Part shown: positions 20,894-49,864 of the stretch, in pieces
Layout: every line of letters starts with the position of its first letter
How positions within the stretch are numbered: position 1 is the stretch's first letter
Assembly (NCBI GenBank): GCA_964547325.1
Contig: CAZJNA010000002.1
Location: forward strand, 6,652-70,651
DNA length: 64,000 nucleotides
Origin: an uncultured Opitutaceae bacterium
GTDB taxonomy: Bacteria > Verrucomicrobiota > Verrucomicrobiia > Opitutales > Opitutaceae
Direction of reading: 5' to 3'
Translations under genes and position numbers: made by a program
Notes under the pieces: model-generated
What the model was told of the DNA's origin: nothing
What the model saw: only the letters and a program-made list of their open reading frames with translations
Database searches by the model: none

Positions 20894-21156
20894 TTCCAGT
20901 CTTCTGGATTCACGCCTGAGAATTCGGAAGCCATGTTGCTGCTGATCCTGGCGGTCTCCTTTCGAAGGGAACGCAGGCCTCCAAAGGCAGCCCTCCATTC
21001 CGGAAGCTCGGTCCGTTGGCCGACGGGGCGATTGAGCTTTTCGACCAACGCTTCGTTTACGACGGTGCGCAGGGTCTTTCCCTGCTTGGCGGCGGAAATC
21101 TTAAGCTGCCTGAAAAGCGGGTCGGGGATCTCGAGGGTTGTCTTCACGAGAGCCAT
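20890..21156 (-). CDS. vapB: VapB-type antitoxin (88 aa)
   Basis: MALVKTTLEIPDPLFRQLKISAAKQGKTLRTVVNEAL is an RHH/antitoxin-like N-terminus. It is translationally coupled to vapC. Confidence 0.7.
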   Translation of the reverse strand: MALVKTTLEIPDPLFRQLKISAAKQGKTLRTVVNEALVEKLNRPVGQRTELPEWRAAFGGLRSLRKETARISSNMASEFSGVNPEDWK

Positions 21157-21204
21157 AAAACCATAAATATGGATAGATTCAACTTTTTAGGCAGAATCGG
21201 GACC

Positions 21205-41625: not shown

Positions 41626-42519
41626 GTGAAAGCTAATGGCTTCCCACGATTTGCGTCCATCGGCGGGCTCCTCCTTCTGGCTGCCTGCTCCAGGCAGCCG
41701 GAAGCGGGGGCCGCCGGGCCGGTCGCGGAAGAGAAGCGCTATCCCCTGACAGGAGAAGTCCTGTCCGTGGATGCCGCCCGTGGCCGGATCACCGTGAGCC
41801 ACGATGCGGTGCCGGGGTTCATGCCGGCGATGACCATGGAATTCGGGGCCGCGCCGGGCGACGTGGCGATCGTGCATCCCGGGGAACGCATCCGCGCCGA
41901 GCTCGTCGCCGATCTCAAGGCGCCGCGGCTTGAGAAGGTCTGGCCTGACGACCGGGCGGCGGCAGACGCCGTGGCTGCTGGCCAGCGCCGGCTTCGGGAG
42001 GATACCCATGACCGGGGCAACGAGGTCTACCGGGATGTCGGCGAGGCGATGCCGGAGTTCGCGCTGTTCGACCAGGCGGGGCGGCTCGTCCAGAGCGGGC
42101 GCTTCCGCGGCAGGCAGGTGATGCTCAATTTCATCTACACCCGCTGCCCCTTCGCAAACATGTGCCCGGCCTCGACCCAGAAGATGATGAGCGCCCAGAG
42201 GATGGCCCGGGAGGCGGGGGTGAGGAACATCGAATTCGTGTCCATATCGATGGATTCCGCCTACGACACGCCTGGCGTCCTTCGCGCGTACGCCGACGAG
42301 CGCGGAATCGACACGAGCAACTTTTCGTTCCTGACGGGGCCTGACGGCGCCGTTCGCGACCTGCTGACTCAATTCGGGATCAAGGCGGAATTTGAGGGCA
42401 ATCTCCTGCGGCACACCCTGGCGACCCTGCTTATCGACGATCGCGGACGGATCATCTGGAGGGTGGACGGCACCGAATGGCAGCCCCAGGATTTCGTGGC
42501 CCGGATGCGCAAGGGATGA
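41626..42519 (+). CDS. SCO1/SenC copper chaperone with N-terminal CusF-like copper-binding domain, lipoprotein
   Basis: Lipobox LLLAAC. The segment YPLTGEVLSVDAARGRITVSHDAVPGFMPAMTMEF is CusF-like. The thioredoxin-fold CPFANMC motif is Sco-like. GTG start. Confidence 0.8.
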   Translation: MKANGFPRFASIGGLLLLAACSRQPEAGAAGPVAEEKRYPLTGEVLSVDAARGRITVSHDAVPGFMPAMTMEFGAAPGDVAIVHPGERIRAELVADLKAPRLEKVWPDDRAAADAVAAGQRRLREDTHDRGNEVYRDVGEAMPEFALFDQAGRLVQSGRFRGRQVMLNFIYTRCPFANMCPASTQKMMSAQRMAREAGVRNIEFVSISMDSAYDTPGVLRAYADERGIDTSNFSFLTGPDGAVRDLLTQFGIKAEFEGNLLRHTLATLLIDDRGRIIWRVDGTEWQPQDFVARMRKG

Positions 42520-43454
42520 GCGCCTCGGCAATCTCGCGGAGCGCGCGGAGGCAGGTGTGGCTCCTGTCGCTCGGGGCGGCCGCCCTCCTCGCCGTTCTCG
42601 TGTGCTTCCATTCGCGTCCGCGGCTGACGCACATGGACTTTGTCGCCGGAGGGCCGGGCTCGCTCGAGTTTTGCGATCCCGCCGATCCAAAGTTCCTTCC
42701 GGTCGTGGAACGGGCTTCGCCGGTCGCCATGGCCCTGATCGCAGCCGGTGCGCCGATGGCCCGCGCGCGCGTGGATGTGGTGGTGCGGCTGCGGACGAAC
42801 ACCGGCAAGCCGATCGGGCCGGAAGACCTCGCCACGACGACTGCGGATAAGATCAGCCTGTTCGTGGTGGACCCCGATCTGGTGGATTTCCAGGCGGCGG
42901 TTCCCTCGCCGGGCGCCGATCCCGGCCAGTGGTCCTTTTCATTCACTCCACGGCGGACGGGCGCCTACCGCGTATTCGCCGATTTCACCCCAAAGGCGAC
43001 GGGGCGGGAGATGTACGCCTATGCGGATGTGCTCGTGGGAGGCGCTGAGGAGCCCGCGCCGGCCCGGGATGTTCAGCGGACGATGGCGTGGAGCTGCGAG
43101 CGCGATGGGATGCGCTTCCTGCTCGTGCCGTCCACAATGCCGCTGCGGGCCCGCGAGCCGTTGCAGATGGGATTCTCGGCTTCGCGAACGGATGGGTCAT
43201 CCGTGGAGCCCCGGCTGTCCTATGGCACCCGGGCGTGTCTCGTGGCCTTTGATCGGGATCGCACCGGCTTGGCGATCTTGCGTCCGGAACCGGCAGGGGA
43301 AAAAGCGGAAATTGAAAACCCGAAAGCGAAAACTGAAGAGGCGTTGGTCTTCAAGGTGTCGATCCCGGATCCCGGCAGGTACGTGATCTGGAGCAGGGTG
43401 GATGCGGGGGGCGGGGAGGTCTCGGCGCCATTTTGGTTCGATGTGTCGCCCTGA
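42516..43454 (+). CDS. Membrane-anchored exported protein of unknown function, translationally coupled to sco
   Basis: The ATGA overlaps the sco stop. One N-terminal helix (VWLLSLGAAALLAVLVCF) is followed by a beta-rich sequence. No family recognised. Confidence 0.6.
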   Translation: MSASAISRSARRQVWLLSLGAAALLAVLVCFHSRPRLTHMDFVAGGPGSLEFCDPADPKFLPVVERASPVAMALIAAGAPMARARVDVVVRLRTNTGKPIGPEDLATTTADKISLFVVDPDLVDFQAAVPSPGADPGQWSFSFTPRRTGAYRVFADFTPKATGREMYAYADVLVGGAEEPAPARDVQRTMAWSCERDGMRFLLVPSTMPLRAREPLQMGFSASRTDGSSVEPRLSYGTRACLVAFDRDRTGLAILRPEPAGEKAEIENPKAKTEEALVFKVSIPDPGRYVIWSRVDAGGGEVSAPFWFDVSP

Positions 43455-43591
43455 ACGGCCTGCTAGGCATTTCCTGCCGCCGCTTTTCAGCGTCGAATGT
43501 TGGCGTTGGAAAAGTGTATTGTAACTAATTGTATATAAAGTAGTTAAATAACATGGCATGAGCTTTGCTTTTAGTGAAGGCAATCTCACTC

Positions 43592-44116
43592 ATGCCTTCC
43601 AAGACCGCTACCTCCGCCTCCGTCCAGTCCTCAAATCCACGGTTTCTGTGGAACGAGATCGTCCGATGGACCTTTGAGGCCTGCATCCTCCGCAAGGAGG
43701 GGAAGGAGGGAGCGGTCGCCGTTCTGCTTCAGGAACGGCTTCCCGCCCTCATCCGCACCTGGTCGAGCCGCTGCGGCCTGGCGCCCGCGGCCTGCAAGGA
43801 GCAGCTGACCAGCCTTTTTTCCCGGGTCCAGGAGAGCGTGGAACTCGGCTTCATGCAGAGGCGCCTGATCGTCGAGGAAATTTGCGCCCGCTTTGCCCAG
43901 CAGCCTTCCGGTTCGCGCCTTCCGGACGTCTCCGGAGCGGTCGGACTGCGCCGCCGGGTGCCGATCGGCGACGTTTCGGACATGCTCGATGCGCTCGCCG
44001 AGGCGGAATTCGAGACCATGGGCGAGGCCATCCTCCCCGTCCGCCGGGCGACCATGGTTCCGCCCAGCCTTTATGCCGAGGAGCCCGCCGACACCCGGAT
44101 GGCCCTGAGCGCCTAG
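43592..44116 (+). CDS. Hypothetical 174-aa protein with acidic C-terminal tail, upstream partner of the actin-like gene
   Basis: ATG 43592. Predicted helical, with the tail DMLDALAEAEFETMGEAI...YAEEPAD. No family recognised. 42 nt before the actin-like gene. Confidence 0.5.
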   Translation: MPSKTATSASVQSSNPRFLWNEIVRWTFEACILRKEGKEGAVAVLLQERLPALIRTWSSRCGLAPAACKEQLTSLFSRVQESVELGFMQRRLIVEEICARFAQQPSGSRLPDVSGAVGLRRRVPIGDVSDMLDALAEAEFETMGEAILPVRRATMVPPSLYAEEPADTRMALSA

Positions 44117-44158
44117 AAAATTAGAAGCTAGAAACCACAACCCAGTCATAATCCAAAA

Positions 44159-45301
44159 GTGAAAACCGTCCTCAACAAATCCGCCAGCAACGCGGCGACC
44201 ATCACCCGTGATGATGGCCGGTCCGCAGACACCGAGACCCTGCTTGTGGGCCTCGACTGGGGCACGAACACCTCGTGCCTCATGGCCGCTCCCCGCGCCA
44301 GCAACGATTCCCGCGTCTCCATCAAGGAGAAGATTCCGACGGTCGTCGGATATGCGGCCGACACGGTTCTGCAGCGCGTGCTGCCGGGCGACGCCAAGGT
44401 TCTCTTCGGAGCCGAAGCCCTGAAGCACAAGCTCTACCTCAGCATCGTTCGTCCGCTCCACGGCGGCGTGATCAACGACCTCCCCTCGGCCCGTCTCTTC
44501 GCCCAGCATCTGCGCGACCGCCTGAACGCAGGGGACCGCGAAGTCCGCGCCGTTATCGGCATGCCGGCCAGCTCCGACATGTCCGCCCGCGAGAACGCCC
44601 GCAACGCCGTCCAGGGGGTGTTCAGCAAAGTCCTCTTCGTCCCGGAGCCATTCCTCGCCGCCCTCGGATATCGCGACGAGGCCCGGCTGAACGACGACAA
44701 GTACCAGGATCCCGTCGCCAATTCGCTCTACATCGACATCGGAGCCGGATCGACGGACGTCTGCCTCGTCCAGGGCCACTATCCGACGGTCGACGACCAG
44801 CTGAGCGAGCCCTTCGCCGGCGACGCGGTCGACCAGATCATCCTTGACCGCGTCCTCGAGGCCTACCCGGACTGCGGACTCACCGCCGCCCGCATCCGCG
44901 ACATCAAGGAGCAGCACTCCTTCGTCCTGGCCAAGGACAGCGCCACCCCTGCGATCGCGACCGTCATGGTTGGCGGCAAGCAGCGGAAGCTCGACGTCAC
45001 CGACCAGGTCGGCGCCGGCTGCGAGGCCCTTCTTCAGAAGGTCTTCGAGATGACGCGTTCGCTCATCGCCCGCGCCGATGCGGAAAGCGTCTCCGAGCTC
45101 CTTCAAAACATCATCGTCACCGGTGGCGGCAGCCTGATCAAGGGCTTCGGCGTCGCGCTGCAGACCAAGCTTCTGGAGGAAGGCTTCGACAACCCGCGCG
45201 TCCGCGTCCTCGGTGAAAACTACAAGGACTACGTCGCCCGGGGTGCGCTCAAGGCCGCCCGCCAGGCCAAGGATCGCCACTGGCAGAATTTGATCGGCTA
45301 G
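44159..45301 (+). CDS. Actin-like ATPase of the MamK/MreB/ParM superfamily (MamK-like by recalled motifs)
   Basis: Phosphate 1 LVGLDWGTNTS, VIGMPAS, connect/phosphate 2 YIDIGAGSTDVCLV, adenosine motif IIVTGGGSLIKGF. The order and spacing match MamK as I recall it (VVGYP, IRYPLQDGV, VDIGAGTTDIC, KEQFSFV, FAGGGSRIRGL). Confidence 0.75.
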   Translation: MKTVLNKSASNAATITRDDGRSADTETLLVGLDWGTNTSCLMAAPRASNDSRVSIKEKIPTVVGYAADTVLQRVLPGDAKVLFGAEALKHKLYLSIVRPLHGGVINDLPSARLFAQHLRDRLNAGDREVRAVIGMPASSDMSARENARNAVQGVFSKVLFVPEPFLAALGYRDEARLNDDKYQDPVANSLYIDIGAGSTDVCLVQGHYPTVDDQLSEPFAGDAVDQIILDRVLEAYPDCGLTAARIRDIKEQHSFVLAKDSATPAIATVMVGGKQRKLDVTDQVGAGCEALLQKVFEMTRSLIARADAESVSELLQNIIVTGGGSLIKGFGVALQTKLLEEGFDNPRVRVLGENYKDYVARGALKAARQAKDRHWQNLIG

Positions 45302-45330
45302 CCAGCCATTAGCCGAAAGGGTTGGGTTCC

Positions 45331-45372
45331 CCGGTCTGCGGCACGAGTTATGCCGCAGGCCGGTTCCTTTTT
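45331..45372 (+). terminator. Intrinsic terminator after the actin-like gene
   Basis: CCGGTCTGCGGCA / TGCCGCAGGCCGG is a 13-bp stem (one G-U pair) with a 7-nt loop, followed by TTCCTTTTTT. Confidence 0.6.
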
Positions 45373-45378
45373 TATCGA

Positions 45379-46275
45379 TCAGGCGCTCGCGAGCGCGTTG
45401 GCGGAGTTCAGGTGATCGGAGCCCGTGTACTTCTCGGACTGCTCGTCGGCGTGGTAGCTGGAGCGGACGAGCGCGCCGCTCTCGACGACGCCGAACCCGA
45501 GTCCCAGGCCGAATTCCTTCCAGCGGATGAATTCCTCCGGGGTCACCCAGCGGTCCACCGGCAGATGCTTCGCGGTCGGCTGCAGGTACTGCCCGATCGT
45601 GAGGATGTCGATCTTGTCGCCGGCCAGGTCGCGCAAGGTGCGCTCGATCTCATCCTGGCGCTCCCCGAGGCCGAGCATGATGCCGGTCTTTGCTACAAAC
45701 CCCCGGCCCTTGGCGTGGGCGAGGACGCGCCGCGACCGGTCGTAGCGGGCCTGCACCCGGACGGGCTTCTGGAGGCGCTCCACCGTTTCCACGTTGTGGT
45801 TGAAGATGTCGGGCTTGGCCTCGAGGACCGTATCCACGTCCTCGAGTTTCCCCTTGAAGTCGGGCACCAGGACCTCGATCGCCGTCTGGGGATTGCGGTG
45901 GCGGACGGCCCGGATCGTCGCCGCCCACACGCTCGCGCCCCCGTCCGCGAGCTCGTCCCGCGCGACGCTGGTCAGGACGCAATGCCGCAGGCCCATCCGG
46001 GCCACGGCGTCCGCGACGCGCGCCGGCTCCCCGAGGTCGAGCTCGGTCGGCCGGCCCGTCTGCACCGCGCAAAAATTGCACGAGCGCGTGCAGATGTTTC
46101 CCAGGATCATGAGGGTCGCGGTCCCCCGCGACCAGCATTCCCCGAGGTTCGGGCATTGCGCGCTCTGGCAGACCGTGTGGAGCTTGTGCTCGTCCACGAG
46201 CTTGCGCACGGCGGAATAGCCCGGGCCGGCGGGGAGCTTGGCGCGGAGCCAGTCGGGTTTGCGCGCGGTGTGCAT
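45379..46275 (-). CDS. lipA: Lipoyl synthase
   Basis: Radical-SAM CTRSCNFC plus the N-terminal cluster CQSAQCPNLGEC. 298 aa from ATG 46275. The rest of the 1277-aa track ORF is an artefact. Confidence 0.93.
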   Translation of the reverse strand: MHTARKPDWLRAKLPAGPGYSAVRKLVDEHKLHTVCQSAQCPNLGECWSRGTATLMILGNICTRSCNFCAVQTGRPTELDLGEPARVADAVARMGLRHCVLTSVARDELADGGASVWAATIRAVRHRNPQTAIEVLVPDFKGKLEDVDTVLEAKPDIFNHNVETVERLQKPVRVQARYDRSRRVLAHAKGRGFVAKTGIMLGLGERQDEIERTLRDLAGDKIDILTIGQYLQPTAKHLPVDRWVTPEEFIRWKEFGLGLGFGVVESGALVRSSYHADEQSEKYTGSDHLNSANALASA

Positions 46276-46383
46276 GAGCGAGCTGGAAACTAAGCAGCCG
46301 GCACGCGAGGTGACAAGCTTTCGAACCGCCGTCCCAATTTCCGTTTGCTCCGATTCCCGCTCGGGGCCAGCATCCGCGGTTCC

Positions 46384-47859
46384 ATGGCTGAAATCCCCTC
46401 CGAGATAACCCACGACCAGCAGGCTGTGCGCCGGCAAAAGCTGGCCGACATGCGCGCGGCCGGGTCGGACCCGTTCCTGGCGAACTTTGCGCCCACGCAT
46501 TTCTCCGCCGAGGCCCTGAAGGCCTACGTCGAGGGCCAGGACAATGCGGTCGCGGTCGCCGTTGCCGGGCGGCTCGTCGTCATCCGGGACATGGGAAAGA
46601 GCCAGTTCGCGAAGGTCCTGGACCAGGATGGCCAGATCCAGATCTACGTGAAGAAGGACGTGGTCGGCGACGAGGCCTACGCGGCATTCCGCCGCCTCGA
46701 CCTCGGCGACATCATCGGGGTCAGGGGAACCCTTTTCAAGACGAAGAGCGGGGAGGTCACGGTCCGCGCCGAGGGCTTCACCCTCGTCGCCAAGGCGCTG
46801 CGGCCTCTGCCGGAAAAGTGGCACGGGCTCACCGACCCGGAGCAGGTGTACCGCCAGCGCTACCTCGACCTGATCGTCAATCCCGAGTCCCGGGCCCGGC
46901 TCCTCATGCGCTCCCGGATTGTCGCCGGAATCCGCCGTTACCTCGAGGACCGGCGGTTTGTGGAGGTGGAGACCCCCGTCCTGCAGACGGTCGCGGGCGG
47001 AGCGGCCGCGCGGCCTTTCACGACCCACCACAACGCCCTTGGCGCTGATTTCTTCCTTCGCATTTCGCTCGAGCTCTACCTCAAGCGCCTGCTCGTCGGC
47101 GGCTATGACCGCGTCTTCGAGATCGGACGGAATTTCCGGAACGAGGGGATTTCGAGGCGCCACAATCCTGAGTTCACGATGCTCGAGGTCTACCAGGCCT
47201 ACAGCGACTACCGCGGCATGATGGCCCTGGCGAAGGGTATGATCACGGAGCTCTGCGCGGGGGTCCTCGGAACGCTCAAGATCGCGCATCCGGCGAGCGG
47301 CCAGGAAATCGACTTCGGCGGGGAATGGCGCGAGGTCGCCTACAAGGACCTGATCCGGGCCGAGACCGGCGATCCCGACTGGTTCAAGCGGAGCCGGGCC
47401 GAGCACGCCGCGGCCGCGGAAACGCTCGGGATCAAGGGAATTCAGCCCCAGTGGGAGGATTTCGAGATCACGCAGGAGATCTTCTCCAAGCGGATCGAGC
47501 CGGCCCTCATCCAGCCCACGTTCGTCGTCAATCTTCCAAGGGAACTGTGCCCCCTGGCGAAGATCAATCCCGCGGACCCGGACACGCTCGACGTGTTCGA
47601 ACTGTGCATCGGGGGCATGGAGATCGCGCCCGCCTATTCGGAGCAGAACGATCCGGACGCGCAGCGGGCGATGTTCGAGCGGCAGGCCGGCGGCGAAAAG
47701 CAAAGCATAGACCAGGATTTCCTGGTCGCACTCGAGCACGGAATGCCCCCCGCCGGAGGAATGGGCGTCGGCATCGACCGGCTCTGCATCCTCCTGACCG
47801 GGGCCGAGAGCATCCGCGACGTCATCCTCTTCCCGCTCTTGCGCCCCGACGGGGCCTAG
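46384..47859 (+). CDS. lysS: Lysine--tRNA ligase (class II)
   Basis: OB-fold N-domain, class II motifs FRNEG, GGMEIAPAYSE and GMGVGIDRL. Confidence 0.95.
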   Translation: MAEIPSEITHDQQAVRRQKLADMRAAGSDPFLANFAPTHFSAEALKAYVEGQDNAVAVAVAGRLVVIRDMGKSQFAKVLDQDGQIQIYVKKDVVGDEAYAAFRRLDLGDIIGVRGTLFKTKSGEVTVRAEGFTLVAKALRPLPEKWHGLTDPEQVYRQRYLDLIVNPESRARLLMRSRIVAGIRRYLEDRRFVEVETPVLQTVAGGAAARPFTTHHNALGADFFLRISLELYLKRLLVGGYDRVFEIGRNFRNEGISRRHNPEFTMLEVYQAYSDYRGMMALAKGMITELCAGVLGTLKIAHPASGQEIDFGGEWREVAYKDLIRAETGDPDWFKRSRAEHAAAAETLGIKGIQPQWEDFEITQEIFSKRIEPALIQPTFVVNLPRELCPLAKINPADPDTLDVFELCIGGMEIAPAYSEQNDPDAQRAMFERQAGGEKQSIDQDFLVALEHGMPPAGGMGVGIDRLCILLTGAESIRDVILFPLLRPDGA

Positions 47860-47876
47860 ACGCCGCCCCACCGTGG

Positions 47877-47945
47877 TTTCCGCTTTCCGCTTTCCGCTTT
47901 TCGCCTTGGGTCCCCCGCTTTCCGCTTTCCGCTTTCCGCTTTTTC
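47877..47945 (+). repeat. TTTCCGC heptamer repeat cluster C (two runs of three units) upstream of lolC/E
   Basis: GTTTCCGCTTTCCGCTTTCCGCTTTTCG (47877-47904) and CCGCTTTCCGCTTTCCGCTTTCCGCTTTTT (47916-47945). The downstream ATG is at 47953. Confidence 0.9.
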
Positions 47946-47952
47946 CTCCCCC

Positions 47953-49182
47953 ATGCCCTGGTATCTTTACCTGGCGCTGAAGCAGTTGTTTCCGTCGGGA
48001 AAGCGGTTTCCGTTCTTCACGGCAATCTCGGTCTTTGGCGTCGCCCTGGGCGTCATGGTGCTGATCGTGACGACGAGCGTCATGGGCGGGTTCCATTACG
48101 AGCTCAGGGAGATGATCGTGAACAAGGAGGGGGAGGTCCAGGTCAAGGCGCAGGGACTCATGCCGAACTATCCCGCCGTGGTCCGGCGCGTGGAGTCCGT
48201 TCCCGGCGTCGTGGCGGCCACGCCCTATGCCGGGACGTCGGTTATGGTGAAGTTTCAGGGCCGGCCCGCGTACCCCCTGCTCACCGGAATCGATCCGTCG
48301 AGCGTCGAACGGGTCACGCGGCTCCGGCAGTATGTCGTCCTCGGCTCCCTGGACGACCTCGACGACGATTCCGTGATTCTCAGCTCCGTCCTGGCGCGCA
48401 GCCTCGGCGCGGGCGTGGGCGACTCCATCGAGGTGTATTCGCCGCTTCTCGTGGAGAAGCTGACCAAGGACGAGGTTTTCCTGCCGCGCTCGGTCCGCGT
48501 TGCCGGGATCATCGAGTTCGGGCACCAGCAGCTGGACCTTAGCACGGTCTATTGCACCCTGCGGCTTGCCCAGGATCTCTTCGGCCTCGATACGACGGTC
48601 CACGGGCTGTACGTGCGGCTGGCGCCCGGCCTGAACGAGGACGAGGGCGCGGCGCGGATCAACGCCGTGCTGCCGCAGGACATCCGCGCCTTTTCCTGGG
48701 AGGACCTCTGGAGCGACTTCCTGTGGATCCTCAACCTCGAGAAAAGCATGATCTTCTTCATGCTGTTCATCATCGTGATCGTCGCGGCCTTCTCGGTCAC
48801 GAGCTCGCTCCTGATCTCGGTCATCCGAAAGACGCGCGAGATCGGCCTTCTGGGCGCCCTCGGGGCGCAGCCGCGCCAGGTGGCGGCCTGCTTCTGCGTC
48901 CAGGGGCTTTTCATCGGGATCCTGGGGACGGCCGTCGGGCTCGGGCTCGGCTTCGGGGCCCTTGCCGTCCGCAACGACGTCGTGATGGGAATAGCGCGGG
49001 CGACGCAGCGCGACGAGGTGCTCCGCCGCTTCTACCAGTTCAGCGAGCTGCCCGCCCACACGGCCGCGCGGGACGTCGTCCTCACCGTCGTCCTCACGAT
49101 CGTCGTCTCCACCCTGGCCGGACTGCTGCCCGCCTGGCGGGCAGCGCGGCTGAAGCCCGTGGAGGCCCTGCGCAATGAGTGA
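47953..49182 (+). CDS. lolE: Lipoprotein-releasing system permease (LolC/LolE, FtsX/MacB type)
   Basis: MacB-like periplasmic domain between TM1 and TM2, a C-terminal FtsX domain, followed by lolD. Confidence 0.8.
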   Translation: MPWYLYLALKQLFPSGKRFPFFTAISVFGVALGVMVLIVTTSVMGGFHYELREMIVNKEGEVQVKAQGLMPNYPAVVRRVESVPGVVAATPYAGTSVMVKFQGRPAYPLLTGIDPSSVERVTRLRQYVVLGSLDDLDDDSVILSSVLARSLGAGVGDSIEVYSPLLVEKLTKDEVFLPRSVRVAGIIEFGHQQLDLSTVYCTLRLAQDLFGLDTTVHGLYVRLAPGLNEDEGAARINAVLPQDIRAFSWEDLWSDFLWILNLEKSMIFFMLFIIVIVAAFSVTSSLLISVIRKTREIGLLGALGAQPRQVAACFCVQGLFIGILGTAVGLGLGFGALAVRNDVVMGIARATQRDEVLRRFYQFSELPAHTAARDVVLTVVLTIVVSTLAGLLPAWRAARLKPVEALRNE

Positions 49183-49864
49183 ATGGGTCCTCAGCGCCCG
49201 CGGCCTTCGCAAGAGTTACAAGAGCGGCGACCGCCGGATCGAGGTTCTGCGCGGCGCGGACATCGCGATCGGCTCCGGGGAGAGCGTCAGCATCCGCGGC
49301 GAGTCCGGCTCCGGAAAATCCACGCTGCTCAACCTGCTGGCGGGGCTGGACGCCGCCGACTCGGGCACGCTCGCGTGGGCGGGCTCCGCCGACACGGGTC
49401 CGGACAGGCGCGCGGACTTTCTCGGCATGGTCTTCCAGGCGTTCTACCTCATCCCCGAGATGAATGCGCGCGAGAACGTTCTCATGGCCCGGAGGATCCG
49501 CGGGAGGCTTGACGCGGGGGCGCGGGCGAAGGCGGACCAGCTCCTCGCGAGGGTGGGCCTGGCCGAGCGCGGCCACCACCTGCCCGCGCATCTCTCGGGC
49601 GGCGAGCGCCAGCGGGTCGCGGTGGCCCGGGCGCTCATGAATTCGCCGCGGCTCCTGCTCGCCGACGAGCCCACGGGCAACTTGGACGAGGGTTCCGGCG
49701 AGGCGGTCGTCGACCTGCTCCTCGGACTCTGCCGGGAGACGGGCACGGCTCTCGTCCTTGTGACCCACAACGCGGCCTTCGGCCTGAAGACGGGCCGCCA
49801 GCTTCTCCTGCGCGAGGGAACGCTGCACGAACTTAACGGTTCACAGCCGGCTCCTTCAGGCTAA
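49175..49864 (+). CDS. lolD: Lipoprotein-releasing system ATP-binding protein
   Basis: GESGSGKSTLLN, LSGGERQRVAVARAL, LLLADEPTGNLD. 8-bp overlap with lolE. Confidence 0.85.
   Translation: MSEWVLSARGLRKSYKSGDRRIEVLRGADIAIGSGESVSIRGESGSGKSTLLNLLAGLDAADSGTLAWAGSADTGPDRRADFLGMVFQAFYLIPEMNARENVLMARRIRGRLDAGARAKADQLLARVGLAERGHHLPAHLSGGERQRVAVARALMNSPRLLLADEPTGNLDEGSGEAVVDLLLGLCRETGTALVLVTHNAAFGLKTGRQLLLREGTLHELNGSQPAPSG

Follow-up and report, generated by a model that had tools for sequence, protein, structure and literature searches.

We have found, in a 64-kb stretch of chromosomal DNA from an uncultured Opitutaceae bacterium (Verrucomicrobiota; overall G+C content 65.9%), a short operon which is likely to code for an actin of the BeeR family and for a small helical partner protein, under sigma-54 control. 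This whole stretch is called the window in what follows. The proposed operon is bicistronic and self-contained. BeeR, published in 2025, is an actin specific to Verrucomicrobiota, which forms a three-stranded hollow filament and whose function is unknown according to its authors (Bergeron et al. 2025, PMC11929497). The features of the operon, in nucleotides (nt) of the window and amino acids (aa), are the following:

43466–43478, plus strand: candidate enhancer, a conserved and phased palindrome, GGCA-TTTCC-TGCC (GGCATTTCCTGCC).
43496–43553, no strand: A+T-rich spacer between the candidate enhancer and the -24 element, including 43511–43554.
43554–43569, plus strand: putative sigma-54 (RpoN) -24/-12 promoter, TGGCAT GAGCT TTGCT (TGGCATGAGCTTTGCT).
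43580–43591, plus strand: predicted transcription start (+1 at about 43580, the canonical distance from the -12 GC) and very short 5' leader.
43592–44116, plus strand: partner gene, ATG start, 174 aa.
44159–45301, plus strand: gene for the BeeR-family actin, GTG start, 380 aa.
45331–45373, plus strand: intrinsic terminator detected by a terminator scan, 13-bp stem and T-run.

The gap between the two genes is 42 nt. The hairpin of the terminator (45331–45363) has 13 pairs, 10 of them G-C, and is followed by TTCCTTTTTT. Both open reading frames lie where an initial annotation, made from the sequence alone, had placed them, and the terminator it had proposed, a hairpin with a T-run downstream of the actin gene, is present. 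Its description of the pair as a self-contained two-gene unit also holds: the pair comes with a promoter and a terminator of its own, and the genes on either side differ among genomes.

By homology, the 380 aa protein is a member of the BeeR family. The NCBIfam BeeR profile (NF053558) matches it over all its positions (1–349 of 349) with 515.1 bits and an E value of 7.8e-155. The NCBIfam profiles for MamK (NF040964) and MreB give 212.8 bits and 42.6–46.2 bits, respectively, below their cut-offs of 400 and 293–515 bits, and the FtsA profile gives 20 bits. In Pfam, only a generic MreB_Mbl or actin-fold match is found (63 bits). A phmmer search against PDB gives 370 bits for the BeeR structure 8r2n (E 9e-110, with about 47% identity across aligned columns), 125 bits for MamK (2e-35) and 57 bits for MreB (1e-14). 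An AlphaFold2 model of the actin has a predicted local distance difference test (pLDDT) value of 84. When this model is compared with known structures by Foldseek, 8r2n is the first match (E 1e-42, template modelling (TM) scores 0.85/0.91), followed by MamK (5e-27) and MreB (4e-21). In a neighbour-joining tree the window protein is found within the BeeR clade, with MamK, to which it is 28% identical, as outgroup. Profiles and phylogeny thus place it with BeeR and not among ordinary MreB proteins, and the label "rod shape-determining protein MreB", which annotation pipelines give to its relatives, is wrong.

The initial annotation had placed this protein nearer to MamK than to either MreB or FtsA, in agreement with the NCBIfam scores (213 versus 44–46 and 20 bits). 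The term "MamK-like" is acceptable for a broad resemblance but not as a class, since the BeeR profile gives 515 bits and the MamK profile 213. The actin-fold ATPase motifs which it had recognized are borne out by a full-length alignment to the BeeR and MamK structures together with the AlphaFold2 model, in which the actin fold is found and the nucleotide-binding motifs are aligned. An N-terminal extension of about 24–27 residues is predicted to be disordered: the profile match begins at residue 28, and residues 1–24 have pLDDT values below 50 in the model. BeeR of Opitutus terrae also has a disordered N-terminal extension, with a published range of 30–50 aa; that of the window protein is slightly shorter.

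Within the family, the window protein falls into a second subclade, whose identity to the O. terrae type is about 46%. Of the 12 published positions in the cross-strand interface of the O. terrae filament, ten have been mapped and compared. Two of these (E153 and L284) are unchanged, three have conservative replacements (L385I, I277V and T307S) and five are altered (R157N, Q310A, E149M, R242E and N246D). The hydrophobic C-terminal plug is kept (L385, I277 and L284 correspond to I379, V271 and L278 in the window protein). The polar contacts between strands have mostly been exchanged.

A scan with the BeeR alignment, one genome per species, has given 37 loci. Nearly all of their hosts are titled Opitutaceae, Opitutia, Opitutae, Opitutus, Rariglobus, Verrucomicrobia or Limisphaerales, and two of the 37 loci are labelled uncultured Akkermansia. 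This is a distribution in Verrucomicrobiota, not in magnetotactic bacteria. Cultured carriers include Actomonas aquatica and the Opitutaceae strains MBA3-11 and D2-102. In 34 of these loci, a genome of Limisphaerales among them, a partner gene precedes BeeR on the same strand at a distance of 20–70 nt, so that the upstream reading frame pointed out in the initial annotation is indeed conserved next to the actin gene. One metagenome-assembled genome has two BeeR copies: that of locus L004 has the partner, the other one is locus L008.

The surroundings of the pair are less constant. The cox/SCO1 and lipA/lysS/lol flanks are confined to the closer relatives, and the upstream neighbour is a phosphorylase gene on the minus strand in the nearest relatives and a WD40 gene elsewhere. 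In close relatives, the phosphorylase gene (L001:4502–5272, minus strand, 256 aa, PNP_UDP_1) is divergent and is placed between the partner gene and a gene for a 325 aa protein. The window, where the 325 aa gene is followed directly by a 137 nt spacer (43455–43591), does not have the PNP_UDP_1 gene; the palindrome described below accompanies the BeeR operon in both layouts.

Judged from sequence comparison, the 174 aa reading frame is a real gene. Its homologues form 53 clusters of similar length, and an exhaustive profile search has extended them to 161 representatives. Neither Pfam nor NCBIfam has any family for the partner of the window, as had been anticipated, and no Pfam domain is found in the 53 homologue clusters. 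Foldseek does not find any PDB match for the partner with E below 1. Its architecture is well defined: a three-helix bundle (residues ~16–103, pLDDT above 94 in an AlphaFold2 model), a disordered linker (104–127), a C-terminal helix and a disordered tail. The C-terminal helix (residues ~123–152, 128–154 in the model) is acidic, amphipathic and conserved, with the motif LRRRVPIxDVxxMLDALAEAE. It is this helix which is conserved in the C-terminal part; the extreme YAEEPAD tail is poorly conserved and predicted to be disordered.

In the partner family both ends are conserved and the middle is variable, from about 15 residues to a long helical region in forms of 534–565 aa. The partner may be read as a two-ended connector because its ends are conserved and its middle is free to vary. 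The long homologues (399–565 aa; P0224, P0240, P0290 and P0265) have the N-terminal bundle and a C-terminal motif of the VPFxDLxxAIDxxI type around the helical insert, and the middle region of the long forms gives Pfam matches of the Apolipoprotein type. One long form (L038, 5001–7974) is paired with a BeeR-family actin; the sigma-54 motif is not seen in this locus. We have considered whether the forms of 534–565 aa could be natural fusions of the partner and BeeR and have rejected it, as their extra length is a long helical linker. Another apparent fusion, P0287 (a metagenome gene call of 367 aa), has the C-terminal motif of the partner, a spacer and BeeR with a frameshifted end; it is probably an artefact of assembly or gene calling. 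Five representatives of the distant or long forms have usable contigs. In four of them a BeeR-family actin follows, and in the fifth (L039, a 4.3-kb contig) no actin is found downstream. The mean pairwise identity is 39% for the partner and 68% for BeeR, and their rates are correlated (r = 0.90). Such a parallel is compatible with co-evolution, but also with simple co-inheritance.

The partner would not be limited to the window subclade. The characterized O. terrae gene (L040) and four relatives have a gene of 138–186 aa at the position of the partner. An hhalign comparison of this upstream protein with the partner family gives a probability of 90.6% (E 1.3e-6) over the whole N-terminal domain, and its C-terminal motif, (S/A)IADFIDxML, resembles the VPIxDVxxMLDAL of the partner. 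Thus, as a remote homologue, a partner appears to accompany the BeeR genes of both subclades, including that of O. terrae. Gene order is fixed in the O. terrae-type loci (L040:4949–7161, CP001032; L042–L045): rplU, rpmA, a protein of 125–147 aa, the partner homologue and BeeR. The 125–147 aa protein has a coiled coil at its N-terminus and a transmembrane helix at its C-terminus, so it would be tail-anchored.

The operon is preceded by a putative sigma-54 promoter. The strict motif TGGCA[CT]-N5-TTGC[AT] has a single match in the 64-kb window when both strands (128 kb) are searched. In the 36 aligned loci GG-N10-GC is invariant, and the consensus is TGGCAT-N5-TTGCT. The ATG of the partner gene starts 22 nt past the end of the element in the window and 11–23 nt past the 16-mer in relatives. 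Both the spacing between the -24 GG and the -12 GC and the distance to the gene are those of a sigma-54 promoter, and we expect sigma-54 to be used at 43554–43569 in vivo. Because the ATG is so close to the element, the mRNA would be leaderless or nearly so in many relatives, and that of the window operon is predicted to be near-leaderless. An Rfam search of 43300–45500 gives no families. No sigma-70 promoter is found on the plus strand, only a weak match on the minus strand. All sigma-54 promoters require an ATP-dependent enhancer-binding activator, so expression of the operon would depend on a signal. In four O. terrae-type loci (L040, L043, L044 and L045) a motif similar to those of extracytoplasmic function (ECF) sigma factors, GAACC-N16-GTCTA, is found before the partner gene instead of the sigma-54 element. 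It may thus be that each BeeR subclade depends on an alternative sigma factor of its own.

The 8-bp inverted repeat which the initial annotation had described over the ATG is exact and located as reported (GGCATGAG at 43555–43562 and CTCATGCC at 43589–43596), but it does not appear to be a functional unit: its left arm is the -24 element and its right arm is the ATG-CC start of the gene. The full repeat is peculiar to the window. The GGCAT arm, like the A+T-rich block described below, goes beyond chance, as both are found again in this position in over 30 related loci. It is probably a chance by-product, because TGGCAT and ATGCCA, found in the Met-Pro starts of several relatives, are reverse-complementary. 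The corresponding start-codon hairpin folds well (-23.4 kcal/mol, z = -3.2). We have rejected it as an RNA hairpin or riboregulator, since the -24 element, which forms its 5' arm, precedes the predicted start of transcription, and the full repeat is not conserved.

Upstream of the promoter there is an A+T-rich block. The stretch 43511–43554 has exactly the 8 G/C in 44 nt which had been reported, and it is the most extreme 44 nt stretch of the whole 64 kb. Only at 21154–21198 does the window again have no more than 12 G/C in 44 nt. The low G+C content is shared by the relatives: the 50 nt which precede the -24 element average 34–42% G+C across 35 loci, versus 60–67% in the flanks. This block had been described as an A+T-rich leader; it is neither a transcribed leader nor a candidate centromere, as it corresponds to the spacer of a conserved sigma-54 promoter. 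The two copies of ATTGTA at 43518 and 43528 are present, but they do not form a repeat family and are not seen upstream of the operon in relatives. There is also one match to the integration host factor (IHF) consensus with one mismatch, at 43534, and an imperfect 16 nt inverted repeat (43515–43530 and 43538–43553). The block is probably a site of bending or of the IHF type.

The palindrome at 43466–43478 lies 12 nt past the stop codon of the preceding gene, and its first nucleotide is 88 nt ahead of the -24 element. In 30 of 35 loci a palindrome of the type GGNA-(A/T-rich, 4–8 nt)-TNCC precedes the -24 element by 40–130 nt, with a background expectation of 0.094 per 90 nt stretch. Its positions are quantised: they are about -65, -77, -87, -99 and -110, in helical steps of about 11 bp. 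At the sequence level, this is the behaviour of an upstream site which depends on the face of the helix. The palindrome travels with the operon even when the upstream gene is different (L001–L003). Both the palindrome and the A+T dip are missing from 12 chance sigma-54-like matches found elsewhere in the loci and in the window. We infer that the palindrome is an enhancer which binds an activator. As far as sequence can tell, the palindrome, the A+T-rich spacer and the -24/-12 element have the classical layout of an enhancer-dependent sigma-54 promoter.

Several observations weigh against the interpretation proposed here, or limit it. The score of the window protein is 15 bits short of the equivalog cut-off of the BeeR profile (530 bits). 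Most other tested members of its subclade are also below this value (492–515 bits), with P0135, P0172 and L037 at 531–552 bits; the cut-off may have been tuned to the O. terrae-type clade. As only about five of the ten mappable interface positions are identical or conservative, the three-stranded architecture is not assured for the BeeR of the window. Three of the 37 BeeR loci (L008:1781–3070, L013:5869–7116 and L027:5881–7059) do without a partner, which is thus not strictly required. In L008 and L013 BeeR itself is directly preceded by the palindrome and the sigma-54 element, and L027 has a -24/-12-like site with a spacing one base short. The correlation between the rates of both proteins is to be expected from vertical inheritance alone. 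We have scanned the window and the loci for the GAFTGA motif of enhancer-binding proteins, and the window for the RpoN-box motif: rpoN is absent from the window, and a GAFTGA protein is absent from the window and from the 6 kb around any locus. The sigma factor and the activator are therefore assumed to be encoded elsewhere. RpoN is reported to be frequent in members of Verrucomicrobia (PMC3372290). Finally, the O. terrae-type loci do not have the sigma-54 motif, so this type of control would be limited to the window subclade.

Other explanations must also be considered. It is quite possible, if rather less likely than not being so, that the partner is an assembly chaperone, an inhibitor or a nucleator, which would hold BeeR monomers by means of its C-terminal helix or cap the filaments. 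Small helical flagellar chaperones, such as FliS, FliT and FlgN, hold filament-forming clients, and the partner is likewise small, all-helical and encoded just before its presumed client on the same mRNA. The three loci which keep BeeR without a partner fit a regulator better than an obligatory structural partner. FliT-type chaperones are found among the fold resemblances of the partner, but these Foldseek matches are not significant (E above 1, TM scores of 0.2–0.5), and the helical middle of the long forms, between two conserved ends, looks more like a spacer or a tether. We consider it unlikely that the two genes are merely co-transcribed, with the small protein acting on some other target in the same sigma-54-induced response. 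Adjacency is found in 34 of the 37 genomes, in both subclades and in distant and long forms, with all other neighbours changing, and the partner family is next to a BeeR-family actin in five of six informative look-ups; the loci with BeeR alone, and the partner-like gene of L039 with no actin downstream on its short contig, are the cases which agree with independent roles.

A DNA-segregation cassette similar to ParMRC, where the A+T repeats would be a centromere bound by the partner, and the acidic tail of the partner would link this DNA to the filament, is very improbable. The pairing of an actin-like ATPase with a small protein having a conserved C-terminal helix, next to unusual A+T-rich DNA which contains repeats, does suggest such a cassette, but its other attributes (a DNA-binding adaptor, an iterated centromere and a plasmid or mobile context) are not found. 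The genes are in a chromosomal housekeeping context, syntenic across Opitutaceae, and no plasmid or mobile-element genes surround them. Iterated direct repeats or direct-repeat families are absent from 43400–43640, and the upstream DNA is fully explained by the conserved sigma-54 promoter, enhancer and bend. The partner does not belong to any Pfam family, ribbon-helix-helix and helix-turn-helix included, and does not match any PDB fold; the actin is BeeR, not ParM or Alp, and gene order is the reverse of parM-parR. The idea that the actin is simply an orthologue of MreB (rod shape) or MamK (magnetosome) is still harder to sustain. It would agree with the database names of the homologues and with the Pfam MreB_Mbl match (63 bits), but the NCBIfam MreB and MamK scores are below their cut-offs while the BeeR profile gives 515 bits, structural comparison ranks BeeR before MamK and MamK before MreB, and there are no mreCD, rodZ or mam genes near the actin gene.

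If the genes do form a sigma-54-controlled operon of BeeR and its partner, the following course of events may be proposed. An AAA+ enhancer-binding protein, activated by a signal, would bind GGCATTTCCTGCC (43466–43478). The A+T-rich DNA would bend, with or without a protein of the IHF/HU type, and bring the activator to the polymerase, so that the sigma-54 polymerase would open the promoter at 43554–43569. A near-leaderless bicistronic mRNA would then be made, coding for the partner and then for the actin and ending at the hairpin 45331–45373. BeeR would polymerize with ATP into a rigid filament, whose cross-strand interface would be unlike that of the solved O. terrae tubule. The acidic amphipathic C-terminal helix of the partner would bind BeeR (a contact which we infer, as we do the identity of the activator and the cargo), and its N-terminal bundle would bind a second target or itself. 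The partner could thus be a tether, an adaptor or an assembly regulator of the filament.

The promoter also gives a tentative indication of the process in which BeeR could be involved. Late flagellar genes of Caulobacter are controlled by sigma-54, IHF and the activator FlbD, which acts at ftr enhancers (PMC3096577, PMC3930126). The class III flagellar promoters of Caulobacter have the same three-part layout: a palindromic enhancer about 90–110 nt upstream, an A+T spacer and a -24/-12 element. They drive flagellar parts, while the window promoter drives an actin and its partner. The window palindrome, we assume, is similar to the Caulobacter ftr consensus. We have scanned metagenome contigs for GGCATTTNNTGCC followed, after 60–90 nt, by TGGCAY-N6-TGC, which gives 80 loci (L046–L125) of varied G+C content. 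The first downstream gene is flagellar in at least 26 of them: 23 hook or rod genes, two flagellin genes and one FlgA gene. One flagellar cluster corresponds to FlgF of Rhodospirillales, and two of the 80 loci are BeeR operons. The geometry of the window is thus also that of bona fide sigma-54 genes, which favours its reading as a sigma-54 promoter with an enhancer. The Opitutaceae sequences covered by the analysis contain no flagellar gene. The combination of palindrome and -24/-12 element may be a useful signature of FlbD-type class III promoters. It is conceivable, with rather low probability, that the BeeR operon is part of a sigma-54 "cell-exterior" regulon under an activator of the FlbD/FleR type. 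The filament and its partner would then be built only in a programme of motility or polar morphogenesis, for example to brace or position a polar structure. If true, membership in a flagellar-type regulon would be the first biological role for the BeeR cytoskeleton.

The genes around the operon are cytochrome-oxidase assembly genes, SCO1, LipA, LysRS and Lol-type ABC transporter genes. No magnetosome-type genes are found in this vicinity, as the initial annotation had already stated. Downstream, lipA (radical-SAM lipoyl synthase) is convergent, on the minus strand, and ends at 45379. It occupies only the last ~297 codons (45379–46272) of a 1277 aa frame (45379–49212, minus strand), which is an artefact of high G+C content; the remainder is antisense to lysS and a lolC-like gene. 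Upstream, the 325 aa protein (42477–43454) has a hydrophobic N-terminal segment and belongs to no Pfam or NCBIfam family. In several Opitutaceae its gene directly follows a SCO1/CusF fusion gene, near ctaA, ctaB and a DUF420 gene, and a role in the assembly of copper centres or cytochrome oxidase is possible. We have rejected this gene as a member of the operon, since the PNP_UDP_1 gene intervenes before the partner gene, on the minus strand, in close relatives.

We have not found any mention of the gene neighbourhood or of a partner in the BeeR paper (PMC11929497) or its preprint, and a literature search has given no later work. To judge from these sources, the partner, the second large subclade with its different lateral interface, and the sigma-54 promoter with its enhancer are apparently undescribed. 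They would be the first regulatory and genetic handles on the function of BeeR. A conserved sigma-54 promoter with an enhancer would mean that the BeeR filament of the window subclade is made on demand.

In comparison with known systems, the closest is BeeR of O. terrae (8r2n). Profile, sequence and fold all assign the window protein to this family, and the phylum is also the same, but it is only about 46–47% identical and is placed in a separate subclade. The O. terrae-type loci have an ECF-like motif and an additional gene for a tail-anchored membrane protein, while the window has a sigma-54 promoter. MamK is the nearest of the other actin families and the second-best structural match. It works with an acidic partner protein, MamJ; the partner in the window has no recognizable resemblance to MamJ or to any other Pfam family. 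A C-terminal helix is also what ParR uses to dock on ParM, and the arrangement here is comparable: a small protein could attach by such a helix to an actin-like filament. The window differs from ParM-ParR-parC in its chromosomal location, the lack of centromere iterons and the opposite gene order, and its upstream DNA corresponds to a promoter.

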